Positions 10,997 through 59,933 of a stretch of 64,000 bases of DNA are shown here, one piece after another. A program made the translations under genes and the position numbers. Location: positions 42,188-106,187 of the forward strand of contig JAHHIK010000010.1 in assembly GCA_019358935.1 (NCBI GenBank), read 5' to 3'. Source of the DNA: Tolypothrix carrinoi HA7290-LM1. GTDB lineage: Bacteria; Cyanobacteriota; Cyanobacteriia; Cyanobacteriales; Nostocaceae. Under the pieces are notes generated by a model. The model had not been told where the DNA came from, did not search any database, and was given only the letters and a program-made list of their open reading frames with translations. The number at the start of each line of letters is the position of its first letter. Position 1 is the stretch's first letter.

Positions 10997-11323
10997 CTAT
11001 CAACAGAGCGATCGCTGCATGTACTGGTAAGATAACCGAACTTTTATCAGCCAGACTTGCAGCTATATCATATTGAAAACTAAACTGTTGGCTACTTATG
11101 CTACCTGCGGCTTTTCTAATATCCAGGTTCTCGACTGCAATACATAACAGCCAAAATCAGAATGTAGTCCTGCTTAATTGTGTAGAGAATTGCATAGGTC
11201 AACTTCACAACTATAACATTTGCGAAGCCATAGTATAACTATAATTATACCATGATGTTATCACTTATAATCAAAGCATTCAAATCTGTTTCGATCGCCA
11301 GTTGCCGATTTTCTTCGAGTTCT
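10997..11323. repeat. Direct repeat copy A: collapsed copy of the TA locus at 19046-20160
   Basis: Three near-identical collinear blocks: 10997-11075 with 19046-19124, 11099-11197 with 19169-19267 (parE 3' end), and 11227-11323 with 20064-20160. Confidence 0.9.
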
Positions 11324-11359
11324 AATGAAGCAGAGAAAATAGCCGCTTGATCGACGGGG

Positions 11360-14300
11360 TTAATTAGATTTGGGAGCGATCGCAATACCTTGGCAAAGAT
11401 TGCGATCGGCTGGTTTCACCTTGGGGTTATTCCTGAGATAATCATCTGCCCAATTGCAACCGCGTTTGAGCAAATAATCAAGGTCAAAATCCCAAACGGA
11501 AACACCTTCTTGTCCAGCAGCAGCGATACTTTTACCATCTGGGCTAAAACTAACATTATCACTGCCCAATCGCTCGTAAGTTGCCAGTAAAGAACCTTCG
11601 ATATTAAAAAGTTTAATCTTCTTTAAACCTGCTGCTGCGATTATCTTGCCATCGGGACTAAAACTTACACTCGATACAGGTTCTTCAACGTTAAATGTGT
11701 TCAAGCTTTTGTTATCTTGGCTATCTAAACTCCAAAGCTTAACCCCACTATCTTTACTGGCAGATGCGATGAGTTTACCATCGGGACTGAAACTTACACC
11801 TGTAACTCCATTTCCATGCTCTTTAAATTCTTTAATTACTTTGCCAGTTGCAGGTTGCCAAACTTTAACTGTTTTGTCGTCGCTGCCAGATGCGACTAAA
11901 GTACCATTATGATTAAAGCTAACGCTGTTTACATTTTGTTTATGCTCTCTGAAATTTGTCATTATTTGACCATCGCGCTGCCAAATTTTCACGGTATTAT
12001 CATAGCTTGCTGAAGCTATCTTACTGCCATCTGGACTAACACTGACGCTGGAAATAATATTATTATGTCCTGGAAAAGTTTGTAATAACTGTACACTATT
12101 TTGTGTATTTTTTCCCGATGCCTGCGAAATCTGCCAGAGTTTGACAACATCATCGTTAGTCACAATAGCAATTTTGTCACTGTTAGGGATTGCCTCGATA
12201 GATCCGATAAAATTGGTTTTTAAGGTCACTGTTTTTGGCTGTATCAACTTTGCTTTAGCATTTTGATTTATATAGCTATTTATATGCCAAAATTGCACCT
12301 CATTCTCGTTGATACGAGTAGCAAAAGTCTTGTTGTCAGCACTAAATATAGTAGGAGAATCTGGTATTGAATTTTTTAAGTCTTCATCGCTAAGATAGTC
12401 ACCAAAGCGCTCAAGTTCCTCACTGGGTATAGTTTGGAGAATTTCCAGGAAAGTGCCATCACTTCTCCATAACTCCACAGTCCGCTCATTGGTACGAACC
12501 GCTAAAATTTGAGCATCATCGCTGAGAACTACAGAAGGGTAGGGTGAACTGTCACTTGGAACTATGTTTCTGGTTTTGAGTTGGATGGTAGTGTTCTGCG
12601 ATCGCTCAATATTCCAAATAGATATTTTATTACTGCCTGCCCTATAAAAAACCTTTGTTTTTAAATCTTTACTCGATATAGGATTTGCTGGATTTTGGTT
12701 TTTACTACTATCTTGAATTGATGAAATTACAGAACCATCATAATTCAAATATTGTATATAATTATTACTGCTAATCGCTATTTCCTTACTATTAATAATA
12801 AAGCTTATATCAACTTCGCTACTATTTTCTTTATTATTAGGCAGATTAATTTTTTTAATTAAATTACCATTACTATTCCATAATTCTAATTGAAAGTCTT
12901 CAGAATTATAGCTGTTTGGAAGATACTTTTTGACAATAGCTATATCTCCATCGGGACTAAATTTTACTGATATTCTTCTATCCTGCTTTAGAGTTTTGAT
13001 AATTTTACCGTTAACCTCTACAAATTTAAGAGTGTTATCATTCGACCAAAAAGCTAAAGTTTTACTATCAGCGCTAAAGCCCATACTTTTATCATTTTCA
13101 TAATTAATCAAGCCATAGTCATGCAAAGAAGTAATCTGTTTTCCATCTCTCTGCCAAAGTTTGATAGTTTTATCCCGACTGCGGGTTGCAAATTTTTTAC
13201 CATCAGGGCTAAAACTTATCTCCTCAACTCTATCTTTGTGTCCTTTGAGAGTTGTAATCTGCTTACCTTCACTCGAATAAATTTCTACTGTATTATCGCT
13301 CTTGCTGAGAGCAATCATTTTTCCATTATTACTAAAACTTCCTTGAATAAGACTTCCTTGTAGAGTCTTGATATATTTGCCGTCACTTTGCCAAAGCTGT
13401 AGGTTAGTTTCTTGGCTAGCGGAAACAATGCTTTCGCGATCGGCACTAAAATTTACTTCTAGATTATTTCCTGGTAATTTTGCAAATAAAGAGCCGTTAC
13501 GCTGCCAGAGTGTTGCCTCACCATTATACTTATTGATAGCAGCAAGTAATTGACTACTAGGATTAAAACTTATATTTGTTATATAATCATAGTCGTTATA
13601 TTCAGAAGATTTAAAACTCTTCTTTTCCAAACTCCAAAGCTTAATGGTTCTGTCCTCGCTAACAGAAGCAAGCATATCTAATGCTGGATTAAAGCTGATA
13701 TCGGTGACTTTATTTCTATGTCCAGTAAGATTAATAGAGTCTATAAATTCTCTATTAGCTGTTTGAGAACTACTAACTATTATACTGTTCTCTATCTGAT
13801 CGGTATATCTTATTCCATAAGAGCTAGTAGCAACCCCGGTTGCAATAATTTTGCTGTCTGGGCTAAACTTGAAATTTATACTTGGTTCCTGATATACATT
13901 TTCACCAGTATTAAATGAAGAACCATCACTACGCCATAACAAACCAAAACTAGAATTAATAGTTTGACCATCGGGACTAAAACTAAGTCTAGGCAAAAAG
14001 TTTTCTCTAACCTCAATATCATCAATCAAAGATTTGATTTCCTTACCTTCCCGATTCCAAAGTTTTGCGGTTTTATCCAAGCTAGCAGAAACAATTGTTT
14101 GACCATCGGGACTAAAGTTGACGCTCGTGACACTAGCATTATGTCCCGTCGGCAAATCTTTAATTACTTTTCCATTTAAATTCCAAAGTATTATACTGCC
14201 ATCTTTAGCTCCAGAAAGTATTGTTTGACCGTTAGGACTAAAACTAGCACTCACAATTTCTGTTCGTTTATGTACAAATATAGAAATTGGTTTAGTATTT

Positions 14301-17300
14301 ATTTGATTACTTTTGATTGACTTTATATCCCAAAGTTTTAAAGTTTTATCTTCGCTACCAGAGAGAATTTTTTTATTATCTGGACTGAAGATAAGATTAG
14401 TAATTTTTTTATCATGAGCATTATTAATGGTTGCAATTTCTATTCCATCTTGTTGCCAAACCTTCACCACTCCATCGGCACTTCCAGAGGCTATCATTTT
14501 ACCATCAGGACTGTAACTAACTTTGGTGACAGTATCTTTGTGTCCTTCTAAACTATTCCGTTCTCGAATTGTATAAACTACATCTTGTAAAGCGGTCGTC
14601 ACCTGCATTTTAACTTCAGGTGATACCCCAATCGACCACCATTGTTTGATACGTTTGCCTGCTTTTAATGCTTGTACTAATGCCTCTAAATCGTTGTTTG
14701 AATTTAAGAACCTTTGAGATTCATTACTCATCGACATAAGTTGACTATTATTCTGACTTATCAACACTAGTGGTAAGAATATTGCAAATGCTCCAGTAAT
14801 AACCCCTAAAGATACTTTCCAAACTAAACCTTTTCGCTCATCGATGAGTTGCTGTCTGAGAACTTCATTAAGCTTTGCTTCAGTTAACTTCCTTTGCTCT
14901 CGTTCTTTCTCCAGCTCTTTAATCAATCGCTCCGACTGCTGCTGACGTACAAATGGTACTAAATAATCATGAACTAGCTGATAGCGATCGCTCGGAAATC
15001 CTGGTACTTGAAATACCAATCCAGATTTGACTAAAATCTTTAAAATTAAGTTTAATCTTTCTGTCTCTAATGCTAATTCTGCTTCGATTTCGGCACGATT
15101 TTTCAGGGGACGAGTATTGTTTTCATCGGTTAAAATATATAACACTAATTTAGCAAACTGCTCGTTATTCTGACCGCAGTCTTTCACAACCTCTTCTAAA
15201 AAACGTCCTACTAATTCTTCTTTGGGACCATATTCTTGATATTGAGCGAGTGTTGTAATTTTTTCGGTTTGCAGTTGCGCTCCTACTACTTGTAATTCAA
15301 TCGGACGAACTTCATTAAAGTTACTCGCTAAATCTCGCACTAATTCATCAATTAGTTCGACATCGAGATGGAATTGAGAGCTTTCTGTTAAATTATCGAT
15401 GACAGAACGAGCATCTTCTGGAGAAAAATTGCCTAAATAGTAGAGGATTTTTTTGTCTAAAATATTGCAGTCGATCGCATCTAGTTTTACCAAGCGATCG
15501 CATTCGAGTAAGTAATGTAAATAATCTTCTCGCAGCGAGAGAATAATCTTTACATAGGGGATATTTAAACAGTCGCGTATAAATTCAAAAAATGGTTGTC
15601 TTTGTACGGGGTCTTTATAAGCAAAGAAAAATTCTTCAAATTGGTCGAAAATTAAAACTGTTAATGAATTATTATCAATATTTTTCTTGAGTTCTGTTGT
15701 AAAAGCTGCCATCGTATCTAAAAAGTGGGGAAAACTTAAACCCTTGACTTCTTCGATAGATTCGACAAAACGACTACCCAAAGTTTTTGCCCAGTCTGTA
15801 TAAACTTGCAACAAAACAGGTACAACGTCCCGTGCTTCAACCGATTTCTGCTTTAAAGCTGGCAATAAACCCGCTTGTACGAGGGAACTTTTACCGACAC
15901 CAGATTGCCCGTAAACTACAGTTAATTTGCAATCGGGACGACCAATTCGTTCGATTAATCGATTTACATCTTGCAACCTTCCAGAAGCGGCAATTTCTGG
16001 AGACACATTTGCTTTGCGATCGCTAACTCCTAACCCAAAGTTAGCTACTTGTCGTCTCGATTGTAAGCGTCCAGCACCAACAAAAGCCCGCAATCCATAT
16101 TGTTGTTCTATCGATCGCAATTCTTGTTTAATATCAAATGCTTCTAAGTATTTGCTTTGGTCAAAGTAAAGCTTTTGCAGGGTGGAAAGAATGCGAATGT
16201 AAAACAAAGGGTCTAACTGGGGATTGCTATGAAAACGAGCAGTTTCTAAATGAGAAATAGCTTCGCTTGTTTGCTCAAGATGTTGTTGTGCTTGGGCTAA
16301 TAATAATAAGTATATATTGCGAAAATTTTTACGTTCCCAATCCAAAATTGTAGTTTGATTTGCTGGGATATTATCTTGATTTGGGACGATGATATCATTA
16401 TGTTGTAGTGCTAATTCCGCATATTCCTTCGCTTGCATCCATTCTGATTTTTGTAAGGCTACTTCTGCCATTAATCCATAACTATAACCGAGCTTTACGG
16501 GTTCCGGATGGGCTTTATGCAAATTAATCGCTTGAGTCGCAACCTTTTCTAGTTCCTCCCACGCTGCTAATTGAGTTAATACTTCTCCCCATAGATTAAT
16601 ATATTTTGCTGCCAAATTTGGTTGATGATGCTGTTCAAAAATATCTACACATTTTTGAAAATATTCTTTAGCTTGCTCGCAAGCTTGCCGATGTTCGCTA
16701 CGATGTATATTCGCATATTGTCGCCACCACAAACCTAGATGCAATAGCACACATCCGTAACGTTTGATATCATCTAGATGGCTATTTTCCCTATCTGTAA
16801 CTCGCTGCTGCCAGAAATCTAAACTTTGTTCGTAGTACGCTCGCGCTTCTGATTTCTTATTACTTGCATCTGCTTCTCTACCTAGCAAAAATTGAATACT
16901 TGCTGCTAATGGTGCTAATGGCTGCATTGATTTTTGTAAATCTTTGACAGCCAATTCCATTTCTAAAAAATGATAGGTATCAAAATCAAGATTTAATGAG
17001 GCATTATCTAAAAATATCCCGGAAACTGCATTGAGAATTGCGGAAAATACTAAGGATATAGTTTCTTCTAACTTAGTAATTAACTCATTAGTTTCGATTT
17101 CAAACTTAATGGAATTACCTGTCCAATTTTTAAAGTCTGGCATTCGACGAATCAATTTTTGGAAGATTTCATCGTTTACCCATAGCACAATCGGAAATTG
17201 AAAATTCTTGCGAAATTCTTCTCTAACTTGATTTGTGGAAATTAAAACTTGGTCAACAGCCTCAACTAACTCCAAGCCAAATATCATTAAAGCTGAAGGT

Positions 17301-17560
17301 TGTCTATCTTTCAAATCAGCTTGAATTGTTGTAAAAAGGGTTTTGACTGACTTTGACAGGTGCAACTCATGAATTTCCATCGGACACTGTTGCTTCAATC
17401 GCTGCACCATTTCATCTTGCAAACTGCGGTAGTTACAGCGTGCAATAATCAAGACAAAATTTTCTTGAGAATTGGTAATTGATCGCGCTAATTTTCGCAA
17501 AGAGCGTTCGTTATCAACTACAATTTTTTCTGGAATTTGTTTGGGTTCTGGGGATATCAT
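11360..17560 (-). CDS. Large STAND-type (nSTAND1-like) NTPase with TPR-like region, TM helix and C-terminal WD40 repeats
   Basis: Walker A GQSGVGKS, Walker B VLIFDQFEEFF, HDYLV motif, TM segment LVWKVSLGVITGAFAIFLPLVLI, and many GH...FSPDG...D.T.KLW repeats. Confidence 0.9.
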   Translation of the reverse strand: MISPEPKQIPEKIVVDNERSLRKLARSITNSQENFVLIIARCNYRSLQDEMVQRLKQQCPMEIHELHLSKSVKTLFTTIQADLKDRQPSALMIFGLELVEAVDQVLISTNQVREEFRKNFQFPIVLWVNDEIFQKLIRRMPDFKNWTGNSIKFEIETNELITKLEETISLVFSAILNAVSGIFLDNASLNLDFDTYHFLEMELAVKDLQKSMQPLAPLAASIQFLLGREADASNKKSEARAYYEQSLDFWQQRVTDRENSHLDDIKRYGCVLLHLGLWWRQYANIHRSEHRQACEQAKEYFQKCVDIFEQHHQPNLAAKYINLWGEVLTQLAAWEELEKVATQAINLHKAHPEPVKLGYSYGLMAEVALQKSEWMQAKEYAELALQHNDIIVPNQDNIPANQTTILDWERKNFRNIYLLLLAQAQQHLEQTSEAISHLETARFHSNPQLDPLFYIRILSTLQKLYFDQSKYLEAFDIKQELRSIEQQYGLRAFVGAGRLQSRRQVANFGLGVSDRKANVSPEIAASGRLQDVNRLIERIGRPDCKLTVVYGQSGVGKSSLVQAGLLPALKQKSVEARDVVPVLLQVYTDWAKTLGSRFVESIEEVKGLSFPHFLDTMAAFTTELKKNIDNNSLTVLIFDQFEEFFFAYKDPVQRQPFFEFIRDCLNIPYVKIILSLREDYLHYLLECDRLVKLDAIDCNILDKKILYYLGNFSPEDARSVIDNLTESSQFHLDVELIDELVRDLASNFNEVRPIELQVVGAQLQTEKITTLAQYQEYGPKEELVGRFLEEVVKDCGQNNEQFAKLVLYILTDENNTRPLKNRAEIEAELALETERLNLILKILVKSGLVFQVPGFPSDRYQLVHDYLVPFVRQQQSERLIKELEKEREQRKLTEAKLNEVLRQQLIDERKGLVWKVSLGVITGAFAIFLPLVLISQNNSQLMSMSNESQRFLNSNNDLEALVQALKAGKRIKQWWSIGVSPEVKMQVTTALQDVVYTIRERNSLEGHKDTVTKVSYSPDGKMIASGSADGVVKVWQQDGIEIATINNAHDKKITNLIFSPDNKKILSGSEDKTLKLWDIKSIKSNQINTKPISIFVHKRTEIVSASFSPNGQTILSGAKDGSIILWNLNGKVIKDLPTGHNASVTSVNFSPDGQTIVSASLDKTAKLWNREGKEIKSLIDDIEVRENFLPRLSFSPDGQTINSSFGLLWRSDGSSFNTGENVYQEPSINFKFSPDSKIIATGVATSSYGIRYTDQIENSIIVSSSQTANREFIDSINLTGHRNKVTDISFNPALDMLASVSEDRTIKLWSLEKKSFKSSEYNDYDYITNISFNPSSQLLAAINKYNGEATLWQRNGSLFAKLPGNNLEVNFSADRESIVSASQETNLQLWQSDGKYIKTLQGSLIQGSFSNNGKMIALSKSDNTVEIYSSEGKQITTLKGHKDRVEEISFSPDGKKFATRSRDKTIKLWQRDGKQITSLHDYGLINYENDKSMGFSADSKTLAFWSNDNTLKFVEVNGKIIKTLKQDRRISVKFSPDGDIAIVKKYLPNSYNSEDFQLELWNSNGNLIKKINLPNNKENSSEVDISFIINSKEIAISSNNYIQYLNYDGSVISSIQDSSKNQNPANPISSKDLKTKVFYRAGSNKISIWNIERSQNTTIQLKTRNIVPSDSSPYPSVVLSDDAQILAVRTNERTVELWRSDGTFLEILQTIPSEELERFGDYLSDEDLKNSIPDSPTIFSADNKTFATRINENEVQFWHINSYINQNAKAKLIQPKTVTLKTNFIGSIEAIPNSDKIAIVTNDDVVKLWQISQASGKNTQNSVQLLQTFPGHNNIISSVSVSPDGSKIASASYDNTVKIWQRDGQIMTNFREHKQNVNSVSFNHNGTLVASGSDDKTVKVWQPATGKVIKEFKEHGNGVTGVSFSPDGKLIASASKDSGVKLWSLDSQDNKSLNTFNVEEPVSSVSFSPDGKIIAAAGLKKIKLFNIEGSLLATYERLGSDNVSFSPDGKSIAAAGQEGVSVWDFDLDYLLKRGCNWADDYLRNNPKVKPADRNLCQGIAIAPKSN

Positions 17561-18861
17561 AATTTAAATTTCTTCGACTCTGCGATCGCAGGATTAATAT
17601 CAAACCAGCGTCCTTCTAGATCGCGGTATTCAAATAAAAACATACTTCTAAGTAGTGTTTGGTATTCTTCCTCACCTTTTACGTTGTCTTTATTTTGCAA
17701 AATTTGATGTAGTAACGTCCACTCATCTTCACTAATTGCCGATATCAAATCATCTCGGTATTCACGGATAACCATTTCCAAACAATCACGTTGAATTGGT
17801 GGGTCATTTTCTTGCAGGCAACTATAAAGTAATACTAGTAAATTGCGGACATGACCGCCACTAACCCTAATTAAACGGTCTAAAGTGTCAGCCGCATCAA
17901 ACACATCAGTAATGCGATCGCATCGCTCTTTTTCTCCGAGTCGAGGAAAAGCACGCGCTAAAACCATCTGCCGTAACAAATCCATCCCTTGTTGATTATC
18001 CCCTCCCTGGCGAGATTTCACTGTCACCATCGGTAAGACAAGCGGTTTGACTCCAAAGCGATTGGTCAATGTACTTAACTCATTTGAAAAAATTAACACC
18101 AAAGGAATTGTGTACACCACATGGCAATTAAGTTTCTTTAGCTGCTCTCCTCTATCAATAAAAAGATACTCCGGTTGCGAACGTCCCGTAGTTTTTAGCG
18201 AAATATCAACGCGATCGAGATTATCGATGATGACAACCAAACCTTTGTATCCTTGTTGCTTCAATTCCTGCTTGGCAGTCTCTAATATCTGTTGGTTGAT
18301 AGCATCTAAAATACCACTGGTGCGTGGTTCTAAATATTGACGTAATTGACTGCGGAGTCTGGGACTATCTTTTGTTTTGGCAGTAACTTTCCCAATACCC
18401 ATTGGTAGAGAAAATTCAAATTCGGGAATTACTGGTGTTTGTAGAAAATCAGCGATTTCATTAAACAAACTCACAAAATAACTTGGCTTCAACCTAATAT
18501 TAACGCTCTCTAAACTGACGCTAACTTGACGGGTAATAGCCAGCAAAATATCGCTGACATCAACATCAGCCATATCTAAATCTGCACTAGACTCAAAATA
18601 AACCACATGAAAACCTTGCCGTTCTAGTTCGTCTTTGAGTCGGAATAGCTCTGTAGATTTGCCACAACCGATATGTCCCGTAAATAGTTGGCAGGTTGAA
18701 GAGTCAACTTGATGGGCGATCGTTCGTCGCAACCTTTGGACTACATTTCCTCCACGTACCGATGAAAAGTCAATATAATATTGTTGGTCTTCTCTATTCT
18801 CAATCTTTAAAGTTTTACTAGGATTGCAAGCATTAAAAAATTTTATTGGGTCTAATGTCAT
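17557..18861 (-). CDS. P-loop ATPase (STAND/KAP-like), partner of the WD40 gene
   Basis: Walker A GHIGCGKS, Walker B VVIIDNLD and SGGHVR motif. ATGA overlap with the downstream gene. Confidence 0.88.
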   Translation of the reverse strand: MTLDPIKFFNACNPSKTLKIENREDQQYYIDFSSVRGGNVVQRLRRTIAHQVDSSTCQLFTGHIGCGKSTELFRLKDELERQGFHVVYFESSADLDMADVDVSDILLAITRQVSVSLESVNIRLKPSYFVSLFNEIADFLQTPVIPEFEFSLPMGIGKVTAKTKDSPRLRSQLRQYLEPRTSGILDAINQQILETAKQELKQQGYKGLVVIIDNLDRVDISLKTTGRSQPEYLFIDRGEQLKKLNCHVVYTIPLVLIFSNELSTLTNRFGVKPLVLPMVTVKSRQGGDNQQGMDLLRQMVLARAFPRLGEKERCDRITDVFDAADTLDRLIRVSGGHVRNLLVLLYSCLQENDPPIQRDCLEMVIREYRDDLISAISEDEWTLLHQILQNKDNVKGEEEYQTLLRSMFLFEYRDLEGRWFDINPAIAESKKFKL

Positions 18862-18996
18862 AGAAATCTCTTGATATAGGATTACTATTTGATTTTTGAA
18901 AAGATACGTAGGGAAGGCAAAAAGGGGTGTGGATGTTCCTCCCCCTTTATTGCCGTTGTGTTAGCTTAGAGAGTACGGCACCATTTTCAAGGGTTT

Positions 18997-19029: not shown

Positions 19030-19170
19030 AATACTTAAATTTTTTCTATCAACAGAGCGATCGCTGCATGTACTGGTAAGATAACCGAACTTTTATCAGC
19101 CAGACTTGCAGCTATATTATATTAGAAACGAAGCAGGCAAACGTAATATTAAGCTGGTAGCGACTTTGTG

Positions 19171-19461
19171 CTACCTGCGGCTTTTCCAATATCCAGGTTC
19201 TCGACTGCAATACATAACAGCCAAAATCAAAATATAGTCCTGCTCAATTGTATAAAGAATTCCATAAGGAAACTTTTGAGTCAAACATCTGCGAACGTCC
19301 TCATCAAGCACAGCCCAACGAGTCGGAGACTCTTTTATTCGATAAACTGCATCCTCAACAGCATCAATAAAAGCTTGCGCTACCTCAGCACGTTGCTTTG
19401 CATAATACTGCACAGCTTCAGTATATTCAGTGAGTGCCTCAGGGTGAAATACATACTTCAT
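19171..19461 (-). CDS. RelE/ParE family type II toxin
   Basis: FHPEA..EY.EA..YY, RRCL..KFPYGILY and ILILAV..SREPGYW. ATGA overlap with the antitoxin. Confidence 0.9.
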   Translation of the reverse strand: MKYVFHPEALTEYTEAVQYYAKQRAEVAQAFIDAVEDAVYRIKESPTRWAVLDEDVRRCLTQKFPYGILYTIEQDYILILAVMYCSREPGYWKSRR

Positions 19462-19688
19462 TGCCCAAGTAGTCGCCTCACTTGAGCCAAAGCTTGTTCT
19501 CCTGGAATCGGTTGGACATCTTTACTGCGAACCTCATCCCGTCGTTTCTGTGCCTCATCAATCCAAGCTGCTTGAATTGTTGGGTCTGTATCAAATTCCA
19601 AGCTTTCCACTATCTTTTCTGCCAAGAGCGCCCTCGACGCACTAGGCAAAGATAGGATTTCTTCTGTCAGTTGCTCAATTGACCGCAT
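19458..19688 (-). CDS. Addiction-module antitoxin (TIGR02574-like)
   Basis: L.LP...RA.LAE....SL and AW..EA.KR. Lies directly upstream of the ParE toxin. Confidence 0.88.
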   Translation of the reverse strand: MRSIEQLTEEILSLPSASRALLAEKIVESLEFDTDPTIQAAWIDEAQKRRDEVRSKDVQPIPGEQALAQVRRLLGQ

Positions 19689-19715
19689 AGCTACCCGCAG
19701 AATGTTGAATTCTGC

Positions 19716-19781
19716 TCACAGTGTAACAACAATTGCAACTAGTCTTGGCATATCTGCCCACCAAATTTCACCTTGCTGCAT
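19716..19781 (-). pseudogene. N-terminal remnant of a PemK/MazF toxin
   Basis: MQQGEIWWADMP start coupled by TAATG to the RHH antitoxin stop. The ORF stops after 21 codons. Confidence 0.75.
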
Positions 19782-20062
19782 TACCAGGTTTCCTTTAGCA
19801 ATGTGTGGGTTTGTAGTTCAACCAAAAATGGGTTAAGACTACTATCCTCATCAGCGTACACAGCATCTAACTGCTCTGTAATGCGTAGGCGTAGTCCGCC
19901 GTTCGCGGAGCGTCTCCGACAGGAGAAGGCATCGCTACGATGAGCTTTTAAGTATTCTTGGAGCGCTACAGCATACAGTTCGCTTCGAGATAGCCCCATT
20001 CGTTTTGCAAAGTTTTCCGCAGCTTCAAAAATAGTATCTGGGATTGAAATAGCTGTTTTCAT
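19781..20062 (-). CDS. Ribbon-helix-helix (MazE-like) antitoxin with a 15-aa in-frame mini-element insertion
   Basis: MKTAISIPD.IFEAAE.FA..MGLSRSELY..AL...L, then ITEQLDAVY. Confidence 0.8.
   Translation of the reverse strand: MKTAISIPDTIFEAAENFAKRMGLSRSELYAVALQEYLKAHRSDAFSCRRRSANGGLRLRITEQLDAVYADEDSSLNPFLVELQTHTLLKETW
19886..19930. mobile_element. Nested SDR elements (21 bp + 24 bp) inserted in a HIP1 site
   Basis: GCG[45 bp]ATCGC. The inner 24-mer GTTCGCGGAGCGTCTCCGACAGGA (19901-19924) resembles 54050-54073. Confidence 0.8.
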
Positions 20063-20069
20063 CGCCATA

Positions 20070-20087
20070 GTATAACTATAGTTATAC
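20070..20087. promoter_or_regulatory. Perfect 18-bp palindrome, putative antitoxin operator overlapping the -10 box
   Basis: GTATAACTATAGTTATAC immediately upstream of the RHH antitoxin start. Confidence 0.6.
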
Positions 20088-20234
20088 CATGATGTTATCA
20101 CTTATAATCAAAGGACTCAAATCTGTTTCGATCGCCAGTTGCCGATTTTCTTCGAGTTCTTCTGTGAATCATTGCAGCGATGTTTGACGACAAGATGGGA
20201 AACGTCTATGCATCCTGTTTATTTGCCCGAAGTA

Positions 20235-21002
20235 TCAGAAATGAGCGACGTATCCACCATCAACCGCCAAAACCTGACCAGTGACGTACGATGCAGCTGG
20301 AGAAGCAAAGAAAACAACAGCACCCGCAATTTCTTTTGGATCTCCCCAACGACCTAGAGAAGTTCGCTTAGAAAGCCAAGCAGCAACTTCTTTATCAGCA
20401 ACCACGTCCATATTACTCTCAGTTGCAAAAAAGCCCGGAGCAACAGCATTAACGGTTATTCCAAATTTTCCCAGTTCCGCAGCAAGAGTGCGAGTTAGTG
20501 ATTCAAGTCCTCCCTTCGCCGTAGTATAAACAGCATCACCAGCATCGGCGATGGAACCTGCAATTGATGTTATGTTGATGATTCTACCCTCACCATTCTC
20601 GATCATCAACCGTGCTGCTTCCCGCGATAGATTGAAGGGAGCGATGAGATCGACATCGATCAGCCGACGCACTGCATCTAGTTCAAATTCAAAAAAATTA
20701 CGGCGATCGCGCATACCAACATTATTTACGAGGATATCGAGATGCCCGTGTTTTTGTTTGATTTCGCTGAACGCTTTTTGAATGGCTGTCTCCGAAGTAA
20801 TATCTAACTGCAATAGTGAGGCTGATCCGCCCATTGAGTGGATAGTTGCAACTGCACGATTGAGGCTTTCATGATTGCGCCCATTTACGAGAACAAAAGC
20901 ACCAGCCTGAGCAAGTGCCTTGGCAATTTCCAGTCCTAGCCCTCGTCCCCCTCCAGTAACTAAGGCAGTTTTGCCATCCAATGAAAACTCAGATAGTGTC
21001 AC
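20235..21002 (-). CDS. Short-chain dehydrogenase/reductase (gluconate 5-dehydrogenase-like)
   Basis: Motifs TGGGRGLG, LVNNVG, YTTAK and VNAVAPG. Confidence 0.9.
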   Translation of the reverse strand: MTLSEFSLDGKTALVTGGGRGLGLEIAKALAQAGAFVLVNGRNHESLNRAVATIHSMGGSASLLQLDITSETAIQKAFSEIKQKHGHLDILVNNVGMRDRRNFFEFELDAVRRLIDVDLIAPFNLSREAARLMIENGEGRIINITSIAGSIADAGDAVYTTAKGGLESLTRTLAAELGKFGITVNAVAPGFFATESNMDVVADKEVAAWLSKRTSLGRWGDPKEIAGAVVFFASPAASYVTGQVLAVDGGYVAHF

Positions 21003-57926: not shown

Positions 57927-58292
57927 TTAATCTCCCAATAGACTTTTAATCAACGCTAATAATTGTCGCATGACTAGCGGTTTAACCAGCATACTCCTAG
58001 CGCCATGAGCAACACTTTGGAGTTGAATTGTAGCGCTTTGTTTAGGCGAGATAACCAAAAAGGGAATTTGTTGATTTTGGAGTTGTTCGCAGCGTTCCCA
58101 GATAGTGCGATCGAAACCGGCAATATCTAACATAACTAACTTAATCTCCGATAATTCGCTTAATTGCCGATCTAATTCTGACAAACTATTAGCGCCAATG
58201 GTTTCATATCCTTGTTTAGTTAAAAATTGGTTAAGTAATTCCAGATTGCGGCTGTTGCTGTCTACAGTTAAAATTAGGGGTTTTTCGCTCAT
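57927..58292 (-). CDS. Single-domain response regulator (receiver)
   Basis: ILTVD...VMLD...PFLVIS...GA..MLVKP. Confidence 0.85.
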   Translation of the reverse strand: MSEKPLILTVDSNSRNLELLNQFLTKQGYETIGANSLSELDRQLSELSEIKLVMLDIAGFDRTIWERCEQLQNQQIPFLVISPKQSATIQLQSVAHGARSMLVKPLVMRQLLALIKSLLGD

Positions 58293-59755
58293 TTTTCCCC
58301 ATCATAATTATCCGCCCATTCGGGAGTGCCGCTGAGAATTTTTCTAAGTTTGCTGAGTGGTTTACCTACCTTGATACCGTAACGAGTTAGCTCAATTTCC
58401 CGTAATGTTTTTTCAAAGTCGGACAAGCGTTTCTTTAAAACGCCGATCGCTTTCCGCATTTCTCCTTTAATTTCTAAATAGCGTAGGAAAATGATATTAT
58501 CTGCAATGTAGCTGATCCCAACATCAGTTGCTCGAAATTCACCAGTGATGCGTTCCATCTCGTTAACTACAATCACCGTCACACCCATATTTTGCAAATA
58601 TTTGCATAAAGCGTGCAAATTGGTAATTAAATTGTCACCGCGCACCGCCAATTGATAACCAGCAACGCTGTCAATCATCACAATCCGCGCTTGTCTCTCT
58701 TCTACCTCTTCACGCACCAAACTAGCGAATTCATCAGCGCTCAATTGCAATGGATCGATTGGCACAACTGACAGCGTGCCGAATTTAATCATAGCGTGAA
58801 CTGGAATATTAACGCTTTCAGAACGAGCCACCAGAGTTTCTTCGGTTTCCTCAAAAGTGTAAACTACCGATCGCTCTCCTCGTCCAGCAGCTTCTTTCAT
58901 AAACTGAAGTCCAATCGTAGTTTTGCCCACACCAGTAGGACCAGTTAAAAGAGTCACCGTCCCGCGCTCTAAACCACCGTGCAACAGTTGATCTAATTCT
59001 GGTACACCAGAGGCAACAGCCTGATTAGTATAGTCGCGTTTGTAATTTTCTGGTTGCAGACGGGGGAAGATTTGCATTCCTTTATCGGTTAAGCGCACCG
59101 CATGAAAACCACTGCGGAAGTCAGAACCGCGAAACTTGGTAACTTGCAGCGTCCTGCCTTTGCTATTGTTATGCAGGTGAATCACACCATCGCTCATAAA
59201 TTGTAAATCTTCGTCGGGAGCAGATCGGCTCGCTTCAGAAGTGAAAATTACCGTCGCACCAGCTTCTAACAAATAGCGCATGAATGACAGCACTTGTTTG
59301 CGAAACTGAAAAGCGTCAGTAGACATGTAGCGAAATTGAGTTATCGCATCCAAAAACACTCGCTGGGGTTTAATCGCATCCAGAGACTCGATTAATTTTT
59401 GAGTAGTTGGTTCTCGCTCTACCTCCGCTGGAGAGAAAATATCATAAGTTTCCATTTGGCTGAAAAATTCCGCAGATGGGCTGAGATCCAAAAAGTGCAT
59501 CGCTTCGGTGTTTAAACCAATCGCTGCACCATTACTTTTTATTTGTTCTGCGGGTTCTCCGAAAGTTATATACATACTCGGTTCATCGTTAGCTAGACCC
59601 ACCGAGAGAAAATGCAGCCCTAGTGTAGTTTTACCAGAACCTGGACCGCCGCGCACCAAATAAGCTCGACCTGGGATAAAACCACCATGCAGAACTTCGT
59701 CAAAACCTCGTATTCCCGTAGAGAGACGCTTTTGATTCATTTGTAAAATTTCCAT
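58289..59755 (-). CDS. KaiC-like double-domain RecA-family ATPase (non-clock type)
   Basis: Two Walker A motifs (GGPGSGKT, GPTGVGKT), plus STG..GFDE.L.GG, KFRGS and ISYIADNI. Confidence 0.9.
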   Translation of the reverse strand: MEILQMNQKRLSTGIRGFDEVLHGGFIPGRAYLVRGGPGSGKTTLGLHFLSVGLANDEPSMYITFGEPAEQIKSNGAAIGLNTEAMHFLDLSPSAEFFSQMETYDIFSPAEVEREPTTQKLIESLDAIKPQRVFLDAITQFRYMSTDAFQFRKQVLSFMRYLLEAGATVIFTSEASRSAPDEDLQFMSDGVIHLHNNSKGRTLQVTKFRGSDFRSGFHAVRLTDKGMQIFPRLQPENYKRDYTNQAVASGVPELDQLLHGGLERGTVTLLTGPTGVGKTTIGLQFMKEAAGRGERSVVYTFEETEETLVARSESVNIPVHAMIKFGTLSVVPIDPLQLSADEFASLVREEVEERQARIVMIDSVAGYQLAVRGDNLITNLHALCKYLQNMGVTVIVVNEMERITGEFRATDVGISYIADNIIFLRYLEIKGEMRKAIGVLKKRLSDFEKTLREIELTRYGIKVGKPLSKLRKILSGTPEWADNYDGEK

Positions 59756-59933
59756 TAACAAACTCCACCACTGTCGGGGTGGAGTTGAAAAAAGTTTGTA
59801 CCCATTAGATTGATACCATAAATCTTACAAATGTTTATTCTAAAGCTGGTTGGGAAATCCTCACTGGCTGTCAGGCTCAGATTGATAGAATTGAAGTAGT
59901 AGCACTACTGTTCAATCTAGCCGAATTAGAAAC

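Follow-up and report, generated by a model that had tools for sequence, protein, structure and literature searches.

The gene pair and its insertion site

Within the 64-kb stretch of DNA analyzed here (the window), a 434-aa P-loop ATPase and a 2066-aa protein, hereafter the receptor, are encoded on the minus strand (17557-18861 and 11360-17560, respectively). As the preliminary description stated, the ATPase stop and the receptor start overlap as ATGA, and translation of the two genes is thus likely coupled. The features of the locus are listed below; residue numbers refer to the respective protein.

10997..11323 (no strand): remnant copy of the toxin-antitoxin (TA) locus with the 3' end of parE and the RHH promoter; repeats 19046-19275 and 20064-20160 in direct orientation
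11347..18876 (no strand): mobile cassette, extent as common to other samples; pieces end at 18876 (four runs) and 11347 (two runs)
11360..17560 (-): receptor gene, 2066 aa; predicted dead AAA+ dock, TPR, nSTAND1, coiled coil, TM helix, WD40
11387..14551 (-): WD40 array and C-terminal two-cysteine motif; about three propellers, the middle one degenerate
14759..14821 (-): predicted single TM helix, residues 914-934; N-in/C-out by charge
14957..15982 (-): nSTAND1 NTPase (PF20703), residues 527-868; 114.9 bits against a cut-off of 27.1
15632-15655 (-): nSTAND1 Walker B, residues 636-643, intact
15884-15910 (-): nSTAND1 Walker A, residues 551-559, intact
16061..17035 (-): TPR-like helical region, residues ~176-500; TPR_12 at 216-251, E 1.4e-5, below the Pfam cut-off
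17036..17560 (-): predicted dead AAA+ domain, residues 1-175; five-stranded AAA+ core without Walker A
17557..17560 (-): ATGA, ATPase stop/receptor start
17557..18861 (-): ATPase gene, 434 aa; TnsC/Cdc6/archaeal-ATPase-like AAA+ with lid and C-terminal winged-helix-like region
18367..18435 (-): amphipathic hairpin-like insert of the ATPase, residues 143-165, located after strand 2 and before Walker B
18652..18678 (-): ATPase Walker A, residues 62-70
19171..20101 (-): parE toxin, antitoxin, and RHH gene, upstream of the pair (Pfam)

A single contig (X4) from a sequencing run other than the likely source run covers the entire cassette unbroken, with 237 differences in 7530 nt, which makes a chimeric assembly an unlikely origin of the long receptor ORF. 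In each of the six genus relatives whose two flanks fall on a single contig, the site lacks the cassette. Here, the cassette forms a 7.5-kb insertion in a small, variable hot spot for TA genes. It contains no transposase or integrase, and its borders are tight around the two genes. TA genes had been reported next to the pair, and ParE (PF05016) and the antitoxin (PF09720) indeed exceeded their Pfam cut-offs, the RHH ORF matching weakly. Because they are also found in 3/6 relatives without the cassette, the TA genes were rejected as part of the module. The proposed defense island was likewise rejected: the window contains suf, sugar/EPS, and housekeeping genes, PADLOC gave only generic matches, and the flanks of 12 related loci held few defense genes. 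The scan took in 128 of the 158 listed ORFs; the remainder were the ATPases and pieces of their partners, some ORFs that were short or doubtful, and the final eight entries.

The receptor

The domain order first proposed for the receptor, a central STAND NTPase followed by a C-terminal repeat sensor, held throughout. A charged coiled-coil-like stretch was read by eye from the sequence at about residues 871-910, and the WD40 region spans ~1005 to 2025, with 19 blades by a local profile. The hydrophobic 19-mer at 916-934 has a Kyte-Doolittle value of 2.45, the runner-up segment reaching 1.68. Among 56 STAND-WD40 partner proteins, 50 have a hydrophobic segment of at least 1.6, and an excess of K/R lies on the N side of the segment in 45 vs. 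the C side in three. CHASE2 takes the place of WD40 in two loci, which agrees with this topology. The conserved helix, with its positive charges on the N-terminal side, supports the TM assignment, and by these sequence features the receptor likely spans the membrane. The WD40 array is predicted to be an extracytoplasmic, fast-diverging sensor. In a Pfam search (E 1e-4), residues 1-500 matched TPR_12 alone, with neither PF20702 nor iSTAND; there is thus no N-terminal enzymatic or pore-forming effector detectable by Pfam in the receptor chain, where residues 1-175 form the predicted dead AAA+ core.

The ATPase

The AlphaFold2 (AF2) model of the ATPase has a pLDDT of 90.7. Its nearest solved folds are TnsC (Z 15.3, rmsd 4.3, 287 aligned) and Cdc6/Orc1 (Cdc6, Z 15.2); the archaeal MNS-type ATPases SSO1545 and PAB2304 are also close (Z 14.7), and BrxC is among the matches at Z 9.7. 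KAP_NTPase is frequent among its Atlas neighbors; the ATPase itself scored 16.6 against this Pfam family (cut-off 20), and several homologues score over the cut-off. PF20702 (nSTAND2) was absent from the nine Pfam families matched at E up to 0.1, and there is no TM helix, the best 19-mer having a Kyte-Doolittle value of 1.37.

The Walker A residues G62, H63, G65, G67, and K68 are kept in 140/140 paired copies, and Walker B-like and sensor-2-like motifs lie at 209-216 and 334-339. An Asn (N214) at the usual Glu position of Walker B counts against the mechanism proposed below. The insert at 143-165, which bears the conserved basic residues K164 and R174, is conserved and strand-like, with strict polar/apolar alternation as judged by a binary test with shuffles; this test was used instead of an initial hydrophobic-moment scan, which was unspecific. 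In the AF2 model, pLDDT is low at 144-148, and residues 152-164 form a helix rather than a hairpin. We hypothesize that the insert is a membrane- or oligomer-forming element; that it acts on the membrane is rather doubtful.

Predicted docking of the two proteins

Residues 1-175 of the receptor (the N-domain) had been described as an inactive NTPase fold that docks the partner ATPase, and modeling favored both parts of this claim. The N-domain model has a pLDDT of 92.9; all 50 matches listed by VIA-align were AAA+ or STAND proteins, the top one among them being TnsC (Z 11.0, rmsd 4.7, 168 aligned), and Foldseek concurred. The AAA+ assignment rests on folds because profile-profile comparison detected no homology with the ATPase (probability 0.7%) and PDB sequence searches found no relatives; Atlas matches were to unnamed clusters only. 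From the model, the N-domain is predicted to be an inactive NTPase, lacking Walker A.

The predicted complex of the ATPase with the N-domain scored 0.81 vs. 0.00 for the best of three controls, the mark for this score being attained by 116/157 solved pairs vs. 2/215 mismatched pairs. Runs shared at least 96% of contacts, with partner pLDDT of at least 83. Part of the score may come from resemblance to solved AAA+-AAA+ interfaces, and the modeled complex is nucleotide-free. On the ATPase, the predicted surface is the nucleotide face, comprising Walker A (64-65), post-Walker B residues (214, 217-219), and sensor-2 R339; on the N-domain, it comprises residues 107-117 and 130-152, including R113, D142, and W146, which are conserved in 138/140, 140/140, and 136/140 paired copies. 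Conservation is higher at polar positions of the interface than at polar positions elsewhere (0.52 vs. 0.33, p 0.0005, in a comparison that was not surface-matched). Judged from these models, the N-domain likely docks physically on the ATPase.

R113 is thus both conserved and in the predicted interface. In nSTAND1-type partners, however, the N-domain has a residue other than Arg where an arginine finger would normally lie, and the putative role of R113 is thus taken from the interface list only, a point against it. Inter-protein covariation (MI-APC, 159 pairs) returned invariant columns only and was uninformative. ATPase R268 and N-domain R/K147 seemed to substitute for one another, exactly one being present in 151/159 pairs, but this pattern follows a clade split and was dropped as evidence.

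Distribution and effector positions

Co-occurrence of the two genes, a check suggested in the preliminary description, was confirmed: in cyanobacteria, the N-domain is present in 37/37 ATPase-positive genomes vs. 1/18 ATPase-negative ones, and profile search of the single exception found an adjacent pair. The N-domain lies within 1 kb downstream of at least 114/141 ATPase copies, tandem double-ATPase loci have two N-domains in 3/3 cases, and genomes contain 1-9 copies. The dead AAA+ domain forms 5185 clusters at 50% identity.

Among the 44 long forms, the ATPase is attached C-terminally to vWA-type proteins in 13, precedes another STAND-type ATPase in 11, and follows another STAND in 19; none is fused to the N-domain, a weak negative. 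One homologue lies inside a VMAP-MoxR-vWA operon, and relatives are fused to TIR in two loci and to CHAT in one. No N-domain was found beside vWA- and CHAT-fused ATPases within the flanks examined. Because some of its relatives sit in effector positions and others are fused to TIR or CHAT, the 434-aa ATPase is probably the output module. The earlier reading of a receptor with no obvious nuclease or TIR effector is therefore incomplete.

Comparison with known systems

No named system matched the pair. PADLOC 2.0 yielded weak P-loop matches and a 72-aa WD40 piece only, NCBIfam nothing near cut-off, and no description of an ATPase paired with a dead-AAA+ receptor was found in the literature searched.

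The nearest parallel is Type I BREX of Acinetobacter (PDB 9zll), in which, according to PMC13326643, the inactive AAA+/STAND protein BrxB docks the ORC/Cdc6-like BrxC and donates an arginine to its ATP site. Both cases would set an inactive AAA+ core without Walker motifs on a Cdc6-like ATPase, but here the docking and the arginine in trans are predicted only, the dead domain is part of a TPR-STAND-TM-WD40 receptor, and its model has five strands without the three-stranded cap that follows strand 4 in BrxB (PMC12839542). Neither PglZ/PglX nor any other BREX match was present among the window ORFs scanned.

The nSTAND2 system (Kaur et al. 2021, PMC8195603) is a mobile two-gene operon whose active and inactive STANDs are predicted to hetero-oligomerize, the inactive copy bearing GT4 or HEPN effectors. 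The operon of one active and one inactive STAND-like ATPase is shared; however, the inactive domain here is joined to another STAND, an active nSTAND1, and to a transmembrane sensor, the ATPase lacks PF20702, and no GT4 or HEPN was found in the window protein or in the 18 partner pieces scanned. Known nSTAND1/Avs-type NLRs (PMC8195603, PMC13581612) include members with WD40 sensors and Apaf-1-like proteins of cyanobacteria. These share the central STAND NTPase and C-terminal repeat sensor, whereas at our locus the predicted dead AAA+ dock occupies the effector slot, a second gene encodes the likely output, and the sensor is placed on the far side of the TM helix.

Tmn (YobI family) and KAP proteins are P-loop NTPases with a membrane-directed insert in the NTPase domain, Tmn being a pore-bearing decamer (PMC13001434). 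The 434-aa ATPase resembles them in the position of its insert but differs in having no TM helix, an amphipathic, strand-like insert, and a sub-cut-off KAP score. In MoxR-vWA ternary conflict systems, effectors are usually C-terminal on the vWA component (Kaur et al. 2020, PMC7159879), as are some ATPase homologues; the window, however, encodes neither MoxR nor a vWA protein, and the dead domain has no iSTAND Pfam match.

Proposed mechanism and alternatives

Our preferred reading, held at a little short of even confidence, is that the two genes form one NLR-like module in which the dead AAA+ domain of the receptor docks an output ATPase. An extracytoplasmic ligand would bind the variable WD40 propellers, and the signal would pass through the single TM helix and coiled coil, causing nSTAND1 to oligomerize as STAND proteins are known to do. 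The clustered dead AAA+ domains, whose binding is predicted, would each complete the nucleotide site of one ATPase in trans, much as BrxB acts on BrxC and probably by way of R113. Nucleated ATPases would then polymerize to become the effector, most likely for cell arrest or death in a conflict setting; TIR or CHAT could serve at some loci, and here, least certainly, insert 143-165 on the membrane.

A conflict or cell-death role for this copy is somewhat favored. Its outer module is swapped in from another lineage, with a breakpoint at about residues 895-910, just ahead of the TM helix, and in one Nostoc clade, STAND identity is 92-100% vs. 39-84% for WD40. Patchy insertion, a swapped outer module, and fast WD40 divergence look like conflict-driven evolution at the sequence level. 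Counting against this role, two paralogous pairs in this genome, found genus-wide beside ftsQ-ftsZ and tatC-petC, look like core genes, and their WD40 regions are mostly 88-99% identical (71-93% in one pair). These pairs speak for an improbable alternative, an envelope or developmental signaling switch of filamentous cyanobacteria without an immunity or cell-death role. The 1-9 copies per genome and the absence of a defense island agree with such a switch, and the CHASE2 or PAS-histidine kinase-receiver endings of some partner proteins suit signaling. It accounts poorly for the patchy, inserted, mosaic nature of this copy with its fast-diverging outer part and for the TIR, CHAT, and MoxR-vWA links of ATPase relatives.

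The same docking could also work in reverse, the dead domain capping the ATPase in antitoxin-like fashion and blocking polymerization until receptor activation frees it. We think this unlikely. Bound BrxB does exclude another BrxC from its site (PMC13326643), translational coupling and the two-for-two loci fit 1:1 titration, and free caps could be encoded by the 18 stand-alone N-domain ORFs (160-200 aa), of which 17 do not adjoin an ATPase. However, direct fusions with the ATPase N-terminal to a STAND (11/44 long forms) favor clustering over release, and the vWA-fused ATPases have no nearby N-domain to cap them. Least likely is a TnsC/Cdc6-like DNA-binding ATPase whose loading the receptor governs (for transcription, replication arrest, or cassette mobility), which the nearest solved folds, the winged-helix-like C-terminus, and the basic K164 and R174 would fit, but which has no need of the strict alternation of the insert and sits ill with a tightly bordered cassette lacking transposase and integrase.

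Filamentous cyanobacteria have many effector-less STAND-WD40 giants. At the present locus, the predicted dead AAA+ dock is 175 residues long, three residues of its predicted interface can be named, and homologues of the ATPase occupy effector slots elsewhere. If the preferred reading is correct, the BrxB-BrxC principle would extend to NLR-like receptors, swappable sensor modules would let an NLR sense beyond the cytoplasm, and programmed cell death in cyanobacteria may prove to involve a new ATPase effector. A broader proposal, speculative and with the odds well against it, is a large, undescribed class of split NLRs acting as a surface-triggered death switch in multicellular cyanobacteria, in which the dead AAA+ adaptor would plug many sensors into one polymerizing ATPase, the inserts would form a beta-barrel pore, and free domains would be decoys. 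The sensors meant are TM-WD40, CHASE2, TPR, NACHT, NB-ARC, and histidine kinase.

ATPase and Receptor Genes

The two ORFs have the lengths and the ATGA overlap given in the preliminary description, which had also correctly assigned a STAND NTPase and WD40 repeats to the larger protein.

11360..17560, (-) strand: receptor, 2066 amino acids
17557..18861, (-) strand: ATPase, 434 amino acids

The receptor nSTAND1 domain (residues 527-868) scores above the Pfam cut-off and the WD40 repeats span residues ~1005-2025 (Pfam), while TPR is a weak match only. A single segment, residues 916-934, is strongly hydrophobic (Kyte-Doolittle hydropathy of the 19-mer, KD, 2.45; runner-up 1.68). All Pfam matches of the ATPase are sub-threshold (AAA_22, 26.9 vs. 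27; KAP, 16.6 vs. 20). The suggested PADLOC check named neither protein, nor did NCBIfam searches. The receptor is a true nSTAND1 member, and the ATPase/receptor pair would work in a similar way to BrxB-BrxC and the nSTAND2 pair, but it lacks defining features of BREX and of nSTAND2, and likewise of KAP/YobI and of single-chain Avs.

A Widespread Module

The ATPase and the N-terminal domain of its partner (receptor residues 1-175; N-domain) are a real, widespread module without description in the literature searched, although the family could already be listed elsewhere. Term searches of the readable portions of the PMC13581612 and PMC7159879 supplements gave no match. The ATPase was found in 37 of 151 genomes sampled across the phylum, with 1-9 matches apiece. 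That the two genes should co-occur elsewhere was borne out by an N-domain profile, which was searched in 55 of the 151 genomes and matched 37/37 ATPase-positive and 1/18 ATPase-negative genomes, the profile being partly built from those genomes and kin being non-independent. The sole ATPase-negative exception held an adjacent pair, found using the ATPase profile. Merging split hits leaves 141 ATPase places, and at least 114 of these have an N-domain ≤1 kb downstream, a lower bound because 31 of 181 N-domain matches are unlisted. Among the 189 loci with hits, all three with two tandem ATPases also have two N-domains, two of these being related cassettes. The N-domain family comprises 5185 clusters at 50% identity; one pair resides on an Acidobacteria plasmid, and relatives of the ATPase occur in Bacteroidota and other phyla.

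The genome of the window carries five pairs and one free N-domain. Stand-alone N-domain copies of 160-200 residues were seen at 18 places (L050, at G000:C21:32018-32539 in the window's genome, L139, L140, and 15 others), 17 of them with no ATPase alongside; these are possibly decoys or caps. L050 retains the conserved Arg, Asp, and Trp, and shares its next gene with L139. In five genomes of one genus (G005:C17, G119:C32, G062:C15, G148:C16, and G056:C110), the ATPase and a long partner are on separate contigs in 5/5, which suggests pairing in trans.

An Apparently Inactive AAA+ Domain Predicted to Dock the ATPase

The proposal that the N-domain is an inactive NTPase fold is supported by a model built on a 48-copy alignment, which has a five-stranded alpha/beta core (pLDDT 92.9) and no Walker A after strand 1. 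Each of the 50 VIA-align matches listed is to an AAA+ or STAND protein, the top ones being TnsC (Z 11.0, rmsd 4.7, 168 aligned) and, at Z 10.2, an ORC subunit; Foldseek was concordant, with modest E-values. The ATPase model (pLDDT 90.7) is TnsC/Cdc6/archaeal-ATPase-like (Z 14.7-15.3). Neither its Walker A residues nor D213 vary in 140/140 paired copies, and R339 is kept in 139, these counts excluding 19 short or truncated partners of 159 pairs. Asparagine (N214) occupies the usual catalytic Glu position, and for that reason ATP hydrolysis is only inferred.

Docking of the N-domain onto the ATPase, also proposed earlier, is favored by complex predictions, which scored 0.81, 0.81, and 0.82 against 0.00 for the best of three controls, shared at least 96% of contacts between runs, and gave a partner pLDDT of at least 83. 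The mark for this score was reached by 116/157 solved complexes and 2/215 mismatched pairs, counts that are rough for the alignments used here, and resemblance to solved AAA+ pairs may raise the score. The predicted site is the ATPase face bearing Walker A, the post-Walker B residues, and sensor-2, which is the place of a neighboring AAA+ subunit. The most conserved N-domain residues, R113 (138/140), D142 (140), and W146 (136), lie in the predicted interface. BREX provides the solved precedent: according to PMC13326643, inactive BrxB gives an arginine to the ATP of BrxC and bars a further BrxC from that same site.

Variable Partners and Their Predicted Topology

The ATPase/N-domain pair is the constant part, the remainder of the partner being variable. 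The N-domain is followed by TPR-nSTAND1-TM-WD40, TPR alone, NACHT-TPR, NB-ARC-TPR, or pentapeptide repeats; in other partners, what comes after nSTAND1 is either CHASE2 or PAS-histidine kinase-receiver, the latter having no TM. Partners with one of these two in the sensor slot are found at L117:6488-8092, L102, and L116.

The TM helix proposed to separate propeller from NTPase stands as a prediction: past nSTAND1, a hydrophobic segment reaches KD ≥1.6 in 50/56 WD40 partners and ≥1.4 in 55/56, with a K/R surplus on its N side in 45 and on its C side in 3. CHASE2, an extracellular sensor according to PMC8195603, takes the place of WD40 in two loci, and a C-terminal two-cysteine motif is present in 79/91 long partners. 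From the TM-like segment, the N-side K/R excess, the CHASE2 replacement, and the two-cysteine motif, the propellers are predicted to be periplasmic or luminal, as seems likely.

Genomic Setting and Mosaic History

The defence-island setting proposed from the adjacent TA genes did not hold, as 46 window ORFs yield generic PADLOC hits only, which speaks against an immune role. When 82 ORFs taken from 12 related loci were scanned, PADLOC clearly identified a DUF2290-helicase pair and a TIR cluster. Also against immunity, two paralogous pairs with conserved propellers are common to the genus, one next to ftsQ-ftsZ and the other next to tatC. The family may include both core copies that signal and mobile copies that act in conflict. 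In the window's genome, these core-like pairs are on contig C81 (beside ftsQ-ftsZ) and C66 (adjoining tatC-petC and a gene resembling a lytic transglycosylase), the C81 pair being followed by an apparently TIR-like AAA_35-type gene and a putative STAND-TM-WD40 gene. A probable KaiC-like ATPase is encoded at window 57930-59761, with putative receiver-domain and histidine-kinase-like genes downstream.

The cassette (borders 11347 and 18876) has 34-40% GC, below the flanking suf and sugar-metabolism genes (mostly 42-48%). Homologues and neighboring genes indicate a cyanobacterium of Nostocales type. Six genus relatives have the two flanks together on a single contig, and in 6/6 the cassette is missing between the genes for the TPR protein and GDP-fucose synthase, the site being empty or holding TA genes or other small inserts; the cassette occurs at this site, with the same borders, in two other samples. 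Parts of the TA locus are duplicated on either side.

10997-11323: TA-locus duplicate piece
19046-19275: TA-locus duplicate piece
20064-20160: TA-locus duplicate piece
20235-21002: short-chain dehydrogenase gene within the variable region, absent here in the genus relatives examined

In the left copy (10997-11323), the RHH promoter, palindrome included, is fused to the 3' end of parE. The RHH gene is followed at ~19760-19780 by the start of a short, truncated, toxin-like ORF, of which relative L067 has the intact 112-aa gene. None of 10 genus relatives has an ATPase above 65% identity, whereas records from Calothrix, Nostoc, and Leptolyngbya include copies at 80-97%. In the closest named relative (L161:11302-15983, ATPase 97% identity), the receptor gene is fragmented and its outer part divergent.

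The receptor is a mosaic, its STAND and TM-linker grouping with different lineages. The STAND groups with a Nostoc clade (99/94), grouping with locus L069 being rejected (p-AU 0.00016), whereas the TM-linker groups with L069 and L070 (100/100), the Nostoc clade being rejected (p-AU 0.00002); these trees hold 25 of 110 partners, in groups preselected from identity profiles, and are rooted for drawing only. Between members of the Nostoc clade, identity is 92-100% in the STAND blocks and 39-84% in the WD40 blocks. Loci L075 and L154 have TM-linkers that cluster (SH-aLRT 94, quick tree) and STANDs that lie apart, likely a second module swap.

Possible Output Role of the ATPase

Forty-four long forms carry the ATPase within longer fused proteins, sorted here according to their N-terminal sequences, their Pfam lists, and a BLAST comparison with one annotated case: C-terminal on vWA-type proteins (13), to another STAND-TPR (18), or to a NACHT protein (1); N-terminal to another STAND-type ATPase (10) or to AAA_35 (1); and, once, a partial ATPase substituting for the dead domain. 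The annotated vWA-fused case sits in a VMAP-MoxR-vWA operon; according to PMC8195603 and PMC7159879, effectors usually come after the vWA domain in such systems. ATPase-TIR fusions were found in two loci and an ATPase-CHAT fusion in one. Given the vWA- and STAND-fused forms, the operon position, and the TIR and CHAT fusions, the ATPase seems to behave like an effector or effector carrier.

At L242:5048-10221 and L142:1085-4332, and in proteins P0281-P0318, the ATPase forms the C-terminal part of a vWA or vWA-linker protein belonging to a MoxR-vWA ternary system, with no dead domain nearby. L115:459-7762 and L243:9001-16508 (Calothrix sp. NIES-4101 plasmid 4) each encode an ATPase, an ATPase-TIR, and a partner in which nSTAND1 accompanies a tandem pair of dead domains; more TIR genes surround L243. 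At L141:1-15501 (177-kb contig), the ATPase-CHAT fusion lies in a cluster that also encodes two CHAT proteins, an Hsp70-like protein, and a propeller protein.

Our lead hypothesis for the output, a doubtful one, is a membrane-inserting hairpin. According to PMC13001434, Tmn, with two helices inserted into its NTPase domain, makes a pore-bearing decamer. Residues 141-165 form an insert with strict polar/apolar alternation (mean z 3.1), z exceeding 1.64 in 86% of 70 non-redundant sequences vs. no more than 36% in any stretch outside residues 133-173; for the copy studied here, p is 0.027. AF2 leaves residues 144-148 uncertain and draws 152-164 as a helix. In some lineages, the insert lengthens from 36 to 52 to 72 residues through similar units.
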